A stretch of 64,000 nucleotides of DNA, taken from Escherichia coli. GTDB taxonomy: Bacteria; Pseudomonadota; Gammaproteobacteria; Enterobacterales; Enterobacteriaceae. A program made the position numbers and the translations under genes. Below, one piece after another: positions 12,195 to 16,253 of the stretch. The stretch is taken from assembly GCF_046105845.1 (NCBI RefSeq), contig NZ_CP151004.1. One strand, 5' to 3'. The notes under the pieces were generated by a model. It had not been told where the DNA came from and ran no database searches. It saw only the letters and a program-made list of their open reading frames with translations. The stretch's first letter is position 1, and every line of letters starts with the position of its first letter.

Positions 12195-13415
12195 GTGGTT
12201 GCTGAAAACCAGCCTGGGCACATTGATCAAATAAAGCAGACCAACGCGGGCGCGGTTTATCGCCTGATTGATCAGCTTGGTCCAGTCTCGCGTATCGATC
12301 TTTCCCGTCTGGCGCAGCTGGCTCCTGCCAGTATCACTAAAATTGTCCGTGAGATGCTCGAAGCACACCTGGTGCAAGAGCTGGAAATCAAAGAAGCGGG
12401 GAACCGTGGCCGTCCGGCAGTGGGGCTGGTGGTTGAAACTGAAGCCTGGCACTATCTTTCTCTGCGCATTAGTCGCGGGGAGATTTTCCTTGCTTTGCGC
12501 GATCTGAGCAGCAAACTGGTAGTGGAGGAGTCGCAGGAACTGGCGTTAAAAGATGACTCGCCATTGCTGGATCGTATCATTTCCCATATCGATCAGTTTT
12601 TTATCCGCCACCAGAAAAAACTTGAGCGTCTGACTTCGATTGCCATTACCTTGCCGGGAATTATTGATACGGAAAATGGTATTGTACATCGCATGCCGTT
12701 CTACGAGGATGTAAAAGAGATGCCGCTCGGCGAGGCGCTGGAGCAGCATACCGGCGTACCGGTTTATATTCAGCATGATATCAGCGCATGGACGATGGCT
12801 GAGGCCTTGTTTGGTGCCTCACGCGGGGCGCGCGATGTGATTCAGGTGGTTATCGATCACAACGTGGGGGCTGGCGTCATTACCGATGGTCATCTGCTAC
12901 ACGCAGGCAGCAGTAGCCTCGTGGAAATAGGCCACACACAGGTCGACCCGTATGGGAAACGCTGTTATTGCGGGAATCACGGTTGCCTCGAAACCATCGC
13001 CAGTGTGGACAGTATTCTTGAGCTGGCACAGCTGCGTCTCAATCAATCCATGAGCTCGATGTTACATGGACAACCGTTAACCGTGGACTCATTGTGTCAG
13101 GCGGCATTGCGCGGCGATCTACTGGCAAAAGACATCATTACCGGGGTAGGCGCGCATGTCGGTCGCATTCTTGCCATCATGGTGAATTTATTTAACCCAC
13201 AAAAAATACTGATTGGCTCACCGTTAAGTAAAGCGGCAGATATCCTCTTCCCAGTCATCTCGGACAGCATCCGTCAGCAGGCCCTTCCTGCGTATAGTCA
13301 GCACATTAGCGTTGAGAGTACTCAGTTTTCTAACCAGGGCACGATGGCAGGCGCTGCGCTGGTAAAAGACGCGATGTATAACGGTTCTTTGTTGATTCGT
13401 CTGTTGCAGGGTTAA
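12195..13415 (+). CDS. mlc: ROK-family global repressor Mlc (DgsA)
   Basis: 406-aa ORF with GTG start at 12195 (MVAENQPGHIDQIKQTNAGAVYRLIDQ...); ROK sugar-kinase-like fold with zinc motif HxxVDPYGKRCYCGNHGC; matches Mlc. Confidence 0.92.
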   Translation: MVAENQPGHIDQIKQTNAGAVYRLIDQLGPVSRIDLSRLAQLAPASITKIVREMLEAHLVQELEIKEAGNRGRPAVGLVVETEAWHYLSLRISRGEIFLALRDLSSKLVVEESQELALKDDSPLLDRIISHIDQFFIRHQKKLERLTSIAITLPGIIDTENGIVHRMPFYEDVKEMPLGEALEQHTGVPVYIQHDISAWTMAEALFGASRGARDVIQVVIDHNVGAGVITDGHLLHAGSSSLVEIGHTQVDPYGKRCYCGNHGCLETIASVDSILELAQLRLNQSMSSMLHGQPLTVDSLCQAALRGDLLAKDIITGVGAHVGRILAIMVNLFNPQKILIGSPLSKAADILFPVISDSIRQQALPAYSQHISVESTQFSNQGTMAGAALVKDAMYNGSLLIRLLQG

Positions 13416-13539
13416 CATTTTTTAACTGTTCTACCAAAATTTGCGCTATCTCAATTTGGGCCAGGAAAGCATAACTTAGACTTTCAAGGTTAATTATTTT
13501 CCTGGTTTATATTTGTGAAGCATAACGGTGGAGTTAGTG

Positions 13540-14235
13540 ATGCTGAAGCGTTTCTTTATTACCGGTACAGACACTTCTGTAGGGAAAACGGTGGTTTCCC
13601 GCGCATTGCTACAAGCGTTAGCCTCCCAGGGAAAAACGGTTGCGGGATATAAACCCGTAGCGAAGGGGAGCAAAGAGACACCCGAAGGGCTGCGTAATAA
13701 AGATGCCCTGGTGTTGCAGAGTGTTTCAACCATCGAACTGCCTTATGAAGCAGTTAATCCTATCGCATTAAGCGAAGAAGAAAGTAGCGTGGCGCACAGT
13801 TGCCCAATCAATTACACCCTCATTTCAAACGGCCTGGCAAACCTGACCGATAAAGTCGATCATGTCGTGGTAGAGGGGACTGGCGGCTGGCGCAGTCTGA
13901 TGAATGATTTGCGTCCGCTCTCTGAATGGGTGGTGCAGGAACAACTGCCGGTGTTGATGGTTGTCGGTATTCAGGAAGGTTGCATTAACCATGCACTGCT
14001 AACAGCTCAGGCGATTGCCAACGACGGGCTGCCACTCATTGGCTGGGTGGCTAACCGAATCAACCCAGGACTGGCGCATTATGCGGAAATCATTGATGTG
14101 CTGGGTAAAAAACTTCCGGCACCGCTCATTGGTGAACTGCCTTATCTGCCGCGCGCCGAACAGCGTGAACTGGGGCAATACATCCGCTTAGCTATGCTGC
14201 GCAGTGTGCTGGCGGTAGATAGAGTCACGGTGTAA
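13540..14235 (+). CDS. ynfK: Dethiobiotin synthetase paralogue (BioD2)
   Basis: Start trimmed to ATG 13540 ([18 protein letters not shown]-loop), 231 aa. 3' end overlaps the convergent clcB by 48 nt. Confidence 0.88.
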
Positions 14236-15444
14236 CGTCCGCGAAATTACCGACGCAATTACGCAGGCAATCAATAAACCGGGGAGTAGCTGATACTCCC
14301 CGGTCATTTCACATATCATCAACGTCGACATAATCGGCGCGTGCGTGGTCGCCGCCAACAGTGTCGCCATTCCGGTCAATCCGAGTAAAAGCGTAATTTC
14401 TTCGCCATCAGGGAACCATAATCCCAGGCTACGACCATACAACATGCCAATGGCAAGACCGATAAATAGCGTCGGTGTAAAGACACCACCGGGCGCGCCA
14501 GAACCACTACTCGCCAGCACGGCAAACAGTTTACAAAGGAAGATCCCGGCAATGATCATTAACAGTGGCGGGGCGGTTAAAAAGGATTGTACGGTGCTAT
14601 AGCCGTTGCCCCACACTGCAGGTGTGAACAGGGAAAGCAGACCCACGATCAACCCGCCCAGTGCCAGTTGCCAGGGCGGCGCAAGTTTGAGACTTACAAA
14701 TCCACGATGACAGGCGTTCATTAACGTTAACAACAGTGGTCCGCACAGACCTGCCAGCACACCTGTACTGATAATCAGCGCATAGTCACGAGCCTGAACC
14801 GTCACTGAGAGTTGTACGTTGTAGAGTAACGCGTCGCTATGATTAATCAGATTGCTAACCAGCAACGCCACGACGGCGGAAATAATCACCGGGCCGAGAG
14901 AGGCCAACATCATAGTGCCAAACAGCACTTCGGCTATAAATAAACTGCCAGCAAGCGGGGCGCGATAGGCCGCAGCCATTCCCGCCGCGGCCCCACAGGC
15001 GATCCATAATTTCCACTCCTGGCGTGGCGTAAAACGTTGGGCAAAACAGGAGGCGGCAAGGGCAGCTAAAAGAATCATCGCACCTTCGCGACCAATTGCA
15101 CTGCCGCTGGTTACTACCAGCAGAGAGGCAAGCGATTTAACCAGGCTTGCTGCGTAATCAAACTGCCCATCGGTTTGCAACGCTTCCATGTAATCGGTCG
15201 GCGCATGAGGGCGTTGCTGGGTAAATTTCTGCCAGCCCATCAGCAACAAACCCGCCGCCAGTCCGCCGAGCGCCGGAGTTAGCAGCCGTCGCCACGGGGA
15301 AAGATTTGTAGCTGCATTGACCAGACTGCCCGAGTCATTATTGAGGAACAGCCACTCCAATAGCAGCATCGCATGACGAAACCCGGCAACGGCAAAGGCC
15401 GCAAGAATACCGACGACTGTTGCGATAAGCAGACGGCGGAACAT
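14188..15444 (-). CDS. clcB: ClC-family voltage-gated chloride channel
   Basis: Start trimmed to ATG at 15442-15444 ([17 protein letters not shown]...), 418 aa; ClC signature GREG in the translation. ORF track begins at 15504. Confidence 0.88.
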
Positions 15445-15638
15445 AGTGCGCAGATCCGGATAGATGTGTAGATGATGCATGAGCAGAAATGGGCAATGAA
15501 ACACGGGCGACTATTTTGCGGCAAAAGAGGCCAGCCGCAAAAGCAGTGCGTGCTTTAAGAGACAAAAAAACGTGACACTGTAACCTATTATTGCCGAATT
15601 GCGCGTAATCGTCACCATCCGGCAATATTACGGTGATC

Positions 15639-16253
15639 CTATCGAAAGAGTGGTTTAACCGCGACAGGAATTAACAGTTGTGATTGCCATTGCGCCAGCG
15701 TTAAGCGAGCCAGTTCACCCAGTGCACGGTAGAAAGGGTGTTCTGCTTTTTCGATAAAAACGTCAAGAAAACGTGTTGACCACGGAAAAAGGTGCCATGC
15801 CAGCAATTCTTCGCATTCTGTCTGGCGACCATTCTCCGCCAACCACGCAGCCATCAACAGCAGTGAACCAAAATGATCTTCCGGTTCGTTTTGCTTCATT
15901 TCAAACTGAATGCCTTTCTCGCGCATCCACTGACGAAGTGCCAATGTTGAATCGCCAAACAGCACAGATTCGCGATCCAGCCAGACCGACCCCCACGGCG
16001 GTGACGGCAGTGCCCACGGGCCGACAAACAAACGCTGCCAGGCCTGGGCGTGAGTCTCTTCACTCTGTGTCTGAAAAGCAGTCACCAGCGGCGCTAATGA
16101 CGCTTCTGGTAGAGGCCACTGAGTTTCCCAGCCGTCACGGGTGAGTACCGCAACCAGGGGGGCGGCTTCCGCACTCTCTGGAGCGTAATAAAACAGCGCG
16201 CCCAACACGCGCGCCGCGACAGAAAAATTATCTTGCTGTGAAAAATGGGTCAT
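15639..16253 (-). CDS. dmsD: Tat proofreading chaperone DmsD
   Basis: Start trimmed to ATG at 16251-16253 (MTHFSQQDNFSVAARVLGALFYYAPES...), 204 aa; last gene of the ynfEFGH-dmsD cluster. Confidence 0.9.
   Translation of the reverse strand: MTHFSQQDNFSVAARVLGALFYYAPESAEAAPLVAVLTRDGWETQWPLPEASLAPLVTAFQTQSEETHAQAWQRLFVGPWALPSPPWGSVWLDRESVLFGDSTLALRQWMREKGIQFEMKQNEPEDHFGSLLLMAAWLAENGRQTECEELLAWHLFPWSTRFLDVFIEKAEHPFYRALGELARLTLAQWQSQLLIPVAVKPLFR

Follow-up and report, generated by a model that had tools for sequence, protein, structure and literature searches.

The convergent ynfK-clcB overlap of Escherichia coli and the stem-loop embedded beside it

A prokaryotic genome has about 20 convergent overlaps longer than 4 bp; phase 123:321 accounts for about one third of those in E. 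coli, and their pattern fits an origin via stop-codon mutation (Lillo & Krakauer 2007, PMC2174442). In addition, Rho-terminated E. coli mRNAs are known to end just past stable, U-less stem-loops that block exonucleases, with rut sites just downstream (Dar & Sorek 2018, PMC6061677). Here we report on a locus with features of both systems, located in a 64,000-nt stretch (the window) of the E. coli contig NZ_CP151004.1 (RefSeq assembly GCF_046105845.1), which is 98-99% identical to E. coli chromosomes. In this window, the 3' ends of ynfK (+ strand; renamed bidA) and clcB (- strand) overlap on opposite strands, and a GC-rich stem-loop lies within clcB shortly past the ynfK stop codon. In our assessment, the overlap is a genuine, family-wide case of dual coding in which both protein tails are selected, and the embedded hairpin probably serves as the 3'-end stem-loop of a Rho-terminated ynfK mRNA. 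The overlap itself is of a known kind; the hairpin is a new element, situated beyond the coordinates treated in an earlier note on this DNA.

The overlap and its two protein tails

The earlier note had claimed a convergent overlap of 48 nt at 14188-14235, and the open reading frames (ORFs), the RefSeq annotation and the K-12 record all agree with it. The same 48 nt are shared in the RefSeq annotation of three unrelated E. coli genomes and in the curated record of K-12 MG1655 (clcB 1665315..1666571, bidA 1666524..1667219), so that public annotation already contains the overlap implicitly. In each gene the shared part comprises the final 15 sense codons plus the stop, those of ynfK being antisense to those of clcB, and the two frames are codon-in-register (phase 123:321), with position 1 facing position 3 and position 2 facing position 2. 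The + strand reads TTA GCT ATG CTG CGC AGT GTG CTG GCG GTA GAT AGA GTC ACG GTG TAA and the - strand TTA CAC CGT GAC TCT ATC TAC CGC CAG CAC ACT GCG CAG CAT AGC TAA, the TAA stop of either gene facing a TTA Leu codon of its partner. In this phase antisense stops arise only opposite TTA, CTA and TCA, which make up 4.1% of the clcB codons and 3.0% of the ynfK codons; the mean open run is 25-33 codons, and a run of at least 15 codons has a probability of about 0.5. Because antisense stops are that rare, the length of 48 nt is unremarkable and is expected once two convergent genes abut in phase 123:321. Unlike its length, the conservation of the overlap goes well beyond chance. All four properties that characterize a convergent overlapping gene pair, namely shared 3' nucleotides, real families, conservation and selection on both frames, were found here.

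A YnfK profile scan of one genome per GTDB species gave 80 loci from more than 20 genera, to which E. coli was added; all species counts below treat species as independent. The ynfK stop lies at the same codon in 83/83 loci, and 80 of 81 ynfK genes are exactly 696 nt long. Meanwhile, the clcB stop shifts among several positions, all of them within ynfK, and never clears that gene: the overlap is present in 67/67 clcB-bearing loci, with a minimum of 39 nt, and no clcB-bearing locus without it was seen among these 67 from more than 20 genera. Most often it spans 48 nt (37 loci; Escherichia, Klebsiella, Kluyvera, Raoultella, Buttiauxella and others); 16 loci, from Citrobacter and Salmonella, share 45 nt, another 12, from Enterobacter and Leclercia, share 66 nt, and a single locus has 39 nt. 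In Superficieibacter electus it reaches 240 nt (locus L058, 2957-3196), since the usual ClcB stop is lost and 64 further codons run antisense to ynfK as far as the next antisense stop, which is where the codon positions of E. coli predict it; this is a natural case of overlap growth via stop loss. The conservation of both stops, which the earlier note had suggested checking, thus turns out to be a fixed ynfK stop and a drifting clcB stop with the overlap always kept, and an earlier stop that abolishes the overlap in homologues, named there as grounds for rejecting it, does not occur in the 67 loci.

Among E. coli genomes, 5113/5420 match the 151-nt junction at 99% identity or better (one mismatch at most), and the surrounding 2.3 kb reaches 99% in 28/5421. 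Over the region 13400-15700, identity to most E. coli genomes is about 98.4%, strain PCN033 being the closest at 99.2%; the source strain stands somewhat off the main E. coli cluster at ynfK-clcB, and the junction itself (14170-14320) is near-identical almost everywhere. A few deviating alleles were also noticed: a frameshifted ynfK allele of 213 aa ending in ...PRAEQRAGGR in Salmonella Infantis (278 member sequences), one frameshifted ynfK allele in E. coli, and a stop-loss ynfK form of 347 aa that continues through the clcB antisense. Repeated palindromic units, CCCTCTCCCTCAGGGAGAGGG..., replace clcB in Enterobacter sp. kpr-6 and look REP-/BIME-type (locus L061, 3197-3390).

Within the overlap, ClcB D-S-I-Y is encoded opposite YnfK V-D-R. 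In clcB-bearing genomes, ClcB D407, S408, I409 and Y410 are conserved at 92-100%, and the codons are close to frozen in both genes. In YnfK, V226 is always GTA (59/59), R228 uses the rare AGA (40) or CGA (17), and A231 is GCG in 56/57; in ClcB, L404 is only TTA (41) or CTA (12), and R405 is CGC in 45/45. As a control set we used 13 genomes without clcB, including Kosakonia, Trabulsiella, Pseudescherichia vulneris, Lelliottia nimipressuralis, some Citrobacter amalonaticus and Intestinirhabdus. YnfK still has 231 aa in these genomes, and L224, D227, R228 and A231 are kept in 12-13 of the 13 (D227 12/13, R228 12/13, A231 13/13), whereas the third-position entropy of the conserved tail codons is 0.98-1.78 bits, compared with 0.13-0.46 bits where clcB is present. 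Since the tail residues persist in clcB-less genomes with free third positions, the YnfK tail is selected as protein and is not merely a shadow of ClcB S-I-Y. The stop codons point in the same direction: ynfK ends in TAA or TAG in 64/64 clcB-bearing loci and in TGA in 9/13 clcB-less ones (Fisher p = 4e-9), and a TGA there would change ClcB L404 to Ser. Judging from this comparison of species, both tails are under their own purifying selection, by which the rare codons AGA/CGA, GTA and TTA/CTA are locked. The near-frozen third positions in both genes and the restriction on the stop codon strongly support the previous proposal that the overlap constrains both C-termini.

A stem-loop in clcB and the ynfK 3' end

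The hairpin falls inside the clcB ORF: counted from the ynfK stop it is 43-69 nt downstream, and counted from the clcB stop 90-116 nt upstream. Its sequence, ACCGGGGAGTA-gctga-TACTCCCCGGT, forms a perfect 11-bp stem (an 8-11 bp GC stem-loop) with a folding free energy (dG) of -21.5 kcal/mol (z = -6.35), and none of 200 shuffled sequences folds as well. It is encoded by the ClcB codons T381-G-E-Y-Q-L-L-P-G389, among which Y384 aligns with ClcA Y445, the chloride-coordinating tyrosine. Over 66 distinct species sequences, 93% of the stem cells are paired, compared with 20-44% when the partner is slid. At stem pair 49-63, C-G occurs in 34 sequences and G-C in 24, ClcB E383Q (GAG>CAG) traveling with a synonymous change of L387 (CTC>CTG). 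Synonymous freezing is found in both arms: ACC encodes T381 in 64/64, the rare codon CCC encodes P388 in 65/65, and G382 has GGG in 54 and GGA in 9. Against the background of 99 conserved four-fold clcB columns, whose third-position entropy has a mean of 1.55 bits (sd 0.31, minimum 0.40) with none invariant, the only two invariant synonymous columns of clcB are the complementary arms of this stem. These patterns indicate that the hairpin is kept at the nucleotide level via synonymous codon choice. Unusually frozen synonymous columns were not seen in the 3' part of ynfK outside the overlap, and Rfam gave no credible match in 13400-15700 (best E = 0.5).

For ynfK, the arrangement is that of a GC-rich stem-loop after the stop codon with a poor U-tract. 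On the ynfK strand the stem is followed by UCAUUUCA, with four U in eight where at least five in eight are expected of an intrinsic terminator, and this tract is fixed by the ClcB codons C378-E379-M380. However, published data point to Rho. Supplementary file 2 of Adams et al. (2021, eLife) lists a Rho region on the ynfK strand, classified as 'primary ynfK, antisense clcB', whose best coordinate, K-12 1666514, is 10 nt past the ynfK stop. The reads upstream and downstream at the ynfK end are 85/11 untreated and 292/159 with bicyclomycin, with a Rho score of 4.2 and p = 1.5e-6 (Adams et al. 2021); we could reproduce the score of 4.2 from the published counts. In addition, the ynfK-sense strand shows a C>G stretch of about 250 nt, with a GC skew of -0.09 to -0.21 in 80-nt windows across 14260-14540. 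Two features of the class of Dar & Sorek, a rise of read-through on Rho inhibition (here at a resolution of 800 nt) and a stable U-less stem-loop, were thus both observed. The ynfK transcript, which runs antisense into clcB, would accordingly be one that Rho terminates, and the hairpin its 3'-end stem-loop; as such it would shield the ynfK mRNA from 3' exonucleases and/or serve as a weak terminator.

Which strand uses the hairpin is a separate matter. Wobbles in the 8-bp core give G.U on ynfK-sense RNA (A.C on clcB-sense RNA) in 23 cells and the reverse in 2; synonymous variants that would give G.U on the clcB strand only (CCT, ACT) were never seen among the species sequences; and the weakest fold has a dG of -13.7 kcal/mol for the ynfK strand vs -8.0 for the clcB strand. 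Several observations weigh against the assignment to ynfK and against parts of the overall explanation. In 30 species, the pair next to the loop reads C.A on the ynfK strand and G.U on that of clcB; the mean dG of the 66 hairpins is equal on the two strands, at -17.7 (ynfK) vs -17.6 kcal/mol (clcB; Wilcoxon p = 0.99); and the terminator scan made no + strand call at the hairpin, its call there being on the - strand only. The stem of Salmonella has an internal G.G mismatch, and some Enterobacter species are also mismatched. The Rho data resolve only to 800 nt, and no 3' end near the hairpin is listed in the aerobic Term-seq tables (Adams et al. 2021), a condition in which ynfK is poorly expressed. 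Hairpin retention after the loss of clcB is not significant evidence. As for the protein, the AlphaFold model offers no structural reason for the conserved YnfK tail D-R-x-x-A. A wider look for 3' ends gave a similar result: the TERMITe supplements hold none in K-12 16663xx-16671xx, and in those parts of the supplements of Adams, TERMITe, Dar & Sorek, Choe 2022, ExcludonFinder and Conway 2014 that were available the Rho-region entry is the only one.

Sequence alone therefore leaves the strand of the hairpin undecided, and biology favours ynfK, because the hairpin is placed where a 3'-end stem-loop belongs, because on the clcB strand it would precede the stop by 27 codons, and because the clcB-less genomes all have a hairpin past the ynfK stop, that of Trabulsiella being derived from clcB. 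Each clcB-less genome has some hairpin shortly past the ynfK stop, often a canonical terminator, and the Trabulsiella one clearly stems from clcB, its clcB-type flank CCGGCCATTTCAC being kept. Two related arguments were given up. Retention of the hairpin in three partial clcB deletions was rejected as support, since a random endpoint spares the hairpin in about 94% of cases, and the view of the hairpins of clcB-less C. amalonaticus and Lelliottia as clcB remnants was withdrawn, since they may derive from the terminator of a neighbouring gene.

Some further observations concern terminator-like sequences around the two stops. In five of the clcB-less genomes, a canonical intrinsic terminator with a real U-tract lies 5-30 nt past the ynfK stop, Kosakonia providing the example AAAGCCCCTCATCTGAGGGGCTTTT; in clcB-bearing genomes, ClcB codons block such a U-tract. 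Read in the clcB sense (14266-14305, - strand), the hairpin is followed by UUUAUUGAUUG, and the scan flagged it as terminator-like even though 27 codons remain until the clcB stop; this U-rich tract derives from the Leu codons TTA-TTG, which are variable in other genera, and looks Escherichia-specific. A clcB terminator inside ynfK was also considered and rejected: RNA past the clcB stop folds no better than shuffled sequences (z = +1.7), and there is no terminator-like call.

Competing explanations

The hairpin might alternatively be a bidirectional element that forms in both nascent RNAs, ends or pauses ynfK-sense transcription and pauses or terminates untranslated clcB-sense transcription, or positions polymerase collisions. 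Bidirectional terminators at convergent gene pairs have reportedly been described by Ju and co-workers in 2019. Programmed RNA polymerase collisions at convergent gene pairs, for whose positioning stem-loops are needed, are described in a preprint (Wang et al. 2022). Such a role would agree with an 8-bp core that is 94% Watson-Crick, with the equal average stability on both strands and, in E. coli, with flanks that on either strand are A-rich before the stem and U-rich after it, the clcB-sense side being the one called by the scan. However, termination 27 codons before the clcB stop would yield non-stop clcB mRNAs; the clcB-sense U-tract TTTATTG is not conserved outside Escherichia, where the L390/L391 codons vary; and core wobbles are tolerated almost only in the ynfK sense, while the stability on the clcB strand falls to -8 kcal/mol in some Klebsiella. 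A bidirectional terminator is expected to have its stem-loop between both stops, and here the stem-loop lies within the clcB ORF; being 90 nt inside that ORF, it cannot be a normal clcB terminator either. We regard a bidirectional role as unlikely. Still less likely, to a marked degree, is that the hairpin is irrelevant and that frozen rare codons (GGG, CCC, CTA/TTA) near the selectivity-filter Tyr slow translation for the insertion or folding of ClcB. These codons are rare in E. coli usage and do sit at a functionally critical motif, which counts in favour of slow translation. Yet the frozen codons are exact reverse complements of each other (ACC/GGT, GGG/CCC, GAG/CTC), the invariant ACC is a common Thr codon and not a rare one, the allowed variants GGA and CAA keep G.U pairing, and E383Q is accompanied by a synonymous L387 change that restores pairing (34 CG vs 24 GC). 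The overlap might, in the extreme, be an annotation artefact, one gene ending earlier so that the shared nucleotides are not translated on both strands. The low confidence of the last six YnfK residues in the structural model and the length of ClcB past Y410, which varies between genera, could be read in this way. Nevertheless, no in-frame stop occurs earlier in either frame, YnfK has 231 aa in 80/81 loci and keeps its tail residues even without clcB, ClcB fills the equivalog-level model NF002437 to its last position, and no homologue abolishes the overlap; stop positions and codon conservation across loci already refute this candidate, and we attach practically no probability to it.

The earlier note had also held that the overlap implies transcriptional interference or antisense pairing between the two mRNAs. 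As a function, this would amount to a regulatory, excludon-like overlap in which FNR-induced ynfK transcription lowers clcB through polymerase collision or through RNase III cleavage of the duplex. FNR activates ynfK (PMC3688515): in the FNR differential-expression list, whose ratios we took as fnr mutant over wild type, ynfK stands at 0.06 (about 16-fold) and ynfEFGH at 0.03-0.06 (Myers et al. 2013, PMC3688515). Complementarity of the ynfK and clcB mRNAs over at least 48 nt is unavoidable, and bicyclomycin raises read-through into clcB. In total RNA, if its columns are taken as we read them, clcB antisense (about 3.6-5.0) about equals sense (about 3.3-5.0), both values being very low, and p19-captured double-stranded RNA (dsRNA) reads are low at both genes, at about 8-30 reads per million (Huang et al. 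2020). However, clcB (b1592), which lies between ynfK and ynfEFGH and is weakly expressed, is absent from the FNR list though both flanking units change 16- to 40-fold. The reciprocal expression that marks an excludon was thus not found (ynfK ratio 0.06, clcB unlisted), on evidence that is indirect given the weak expression of clcB. In addition, Rho normally stops ynfK-strand transcription near the stop codon (coverage drops from 85 to 11 reads), none of the 301-383 listed dsRNA clusters is at this locus, which appears in per-gene tables only (Huang et al. 2020), both genes are weakly expressed, and the protein and hairpin constraints fully account for the conservation. A regulatory overlap is therefore quite improbable in our view, if not to the extent of the slow-translation and artefact explanations. 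Complementary transcripts exist, without sign of control over either gene; interference or pairing as a function finds no support in view of the Rho cut-off, the low dsRNA and the position of clcB outside the FNR list. Under the explanation by dual coding and a ynfK 3'-end stem-loop, the overlap would persist since neither tail can shorten, and not through regulation.

The two genes, the origin of the overlap and known systems

The locus has the order ynfL-mlc-ynfK on the + strand and clcB-dmsD-ynfH on the - strand, and its features are listed in Table 1. YnfK/BidA is a paralogue of BioD, dethiobiotin synthetase (NCBIfam TIGR00347 bioD, 134 bits against a cut-off of 83), and its alignment with the BioD structure PDB 1a82 (E=5e-65) extends to residue 220. 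Its AlphaFold2 model is of moderate confidence (predicted local distance difference test, pLDDT, 72), with residues 226-231 at pLDDT <50. ClcB matches the NCBIfam NF002437 ClcB equivalog with 865 bits (cut-off 425) through the last model position; Pfam Voltage_CLC spans its residues 60-402, and ClcA structures align with it over residues 5-402/410, i.e. through the S-I-Y motif. The clcB start varies among records: K-12 has 418 aa (ATG 15444, MFRRLL...), whereas NCBI PGAP has 430 aa (1293 nt) from a start at 15480, 36 nt farther upstream, and the open frame reaches back to a GTG at 15504 (438 aa; window 15445-15504, - strand). The 418-aa form matches the NCBIfam ClcB model, which has 429 positions, from position 12. 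Two imperfect FNR-like half-site pairs occur in the mlc-ynfK intergenic region, at 13441-13454 (TTGCG-ctat-CTCAA) and 13512-13525 (TTGTG-aagc-ATAAC), and FNR and sigma-70 peaks from chromatin immunoprecipitation have been reported in the same region.

Table 1. Features of the ynfK-clcB locus in the window
Feature	Position	Strand	Description
ynfK (bidA) coding sequence	13540..14235	+	ATG 13540, 231 aa, TAA 14233-14235
clcB coding sequence	14188..15444	-	ATG 15444 (K-12 start), 418 aa, TAA 14190-14188
Tail-to-tail dual-coding overlap	14188..14235	both	YnfK L217 to stop opposite ClcB L404 to stop
C-terminal extension of YnfK, residues 221-231	14200..14232	+	11 residues past the end of E. coli BioD, wholly within the overlap
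Doubly constrained core	14215..14235	both	YnfK V226-D-R-V-x-A-stop opposite ClcB L404-(R/H)-x-D-S-I-Y410
Rho termination region, best-scoring coordinate	14236..14255 (~14245 = K-12 1666514)	+	Approximate, 800-nt windows
Conserved GC-rich stem-loop	14278..14304	+ (favoured strand)	Arms 14278-14288 and 14294-14304; loop 14289-14293
C>G stretch, possible Rho loading (rut) region	14300..14500	+	Directly past the hairpin; weak evidence

The overlap would have arisen by ordinary stop loss or by 3'-end fusion in the stop-poor 123:321 phase. In Pantoea (Erwiniaceae), the ynfL-mlc-ynfK synteny is kept, with a co-directional permease where clcB would be, and the YnfK tail, of similar length, reads ...LHAVSAK(I/P)A. 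Because Pantoea YnfK has a tail of similar length without an adjacent clcB, a tail predates the Enterobacteriaceae, the V-D-R motif being seen only where clcB abuts. The Pantoea tail ...AVSAKIA conflicts with a simple model of the YnfK tail as clcB antisense. ClcB also matches the 'ClcB-like' family NCBIfam NF002505 (577 positions), over positions 25-433 only; since this match ends at 433, relatives have about 144 more C-terminal residues, and the end of ClcB coincides with the overlap. It is conceivable, if doubtful, that an ancestral ClcB-like channel lost a cytoplasmic C-terminal domain of about 144 residues, just past S-I-Y, by a clcB-ynfK 3'-end fusion, each gene donating a C-terminus to the other. 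ClcB would then owe its last approximately eight residues and its stop to the antisense of the BioD-homologous end of ynfK, and the last six residues and the stop of YnfK would come from clcB antisense and have later become functionally required (D-R-x-x-A); the ynfK 3' stem-loop would have been written afterwards into the selectivity-filter codons of clcB. If true, the fusion is a datable example of reciprocal overprinting.

The locus has several practical consequences. About a dozen Enterobacteriaceae lineages have deleted clcB and provide a natural control that assigns each constraint to its gene, and the locus may be useful as a clean example in teaching and as a benchmark, whether for dual-coding selection, for the detection of selection at synonymous sites or for the design of synthetic convergent overlaps. 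A clean deletion of ynfK or clcB truncates the other gene. Meanwhile, 'synonymous' recoding or deletion of clcB codons 381-418 is not safely neutral for ynfK/bidA, the anaerobic dethiobiotin synthetase. More generally, the most conserved motif of a gene can harbour the 3'-end signal of its neighbour's transcript, and terminator predictors usually mask coding sequence.

Among the described systems, excludons (ExcludonFinder, PMC12288877) resemble ynfK-clcB in that convergent neighbours have transcripts that must overlap and that ynfK is strongly FNR-dependent; they differ in that ynfK-clcB shows no reciprocal expression, its overlap is short and Rho limits read-through. Bidirectional terminators and collision elements likewise consist of a single palindromic stem-loop common to a convergent pair, with A-rich and U-rich flanks as in E. 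coli, but they lie between two stops, whereas the ynfK-clcB stem-loop is 90 nt inside one ORF. The class of Dar & Sorek (PMC6061677), in which stem-loops protect against PNPase and RNase II, shares with ynfK a GC stem-loop without a proper U-tract, a Rho region and a C>G stretch downstream. Its mRNAs have mapped 3' ends, whereas the fit of the ynfK hairpin is known from sequence and the Rho region, and the ynfK stem-loop stands out in lying within the coding sequence of a convergent neighbour, where it is written in ClcB codons. As for the 123:321 convergent overlaps (PMC2174442), the pair consists of two bona fide genes in a known phase with a length within the stop-loss prediction, and Superficieibacter shows the stop-loss process live. 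Unlike most catalogued convergent overlaps, which were never subjected to such a natural-loss comparison, ynfK-clcB is conserved family-wide in more than 20 genera, and the natural loss of clcB shows independent selection on its tails.

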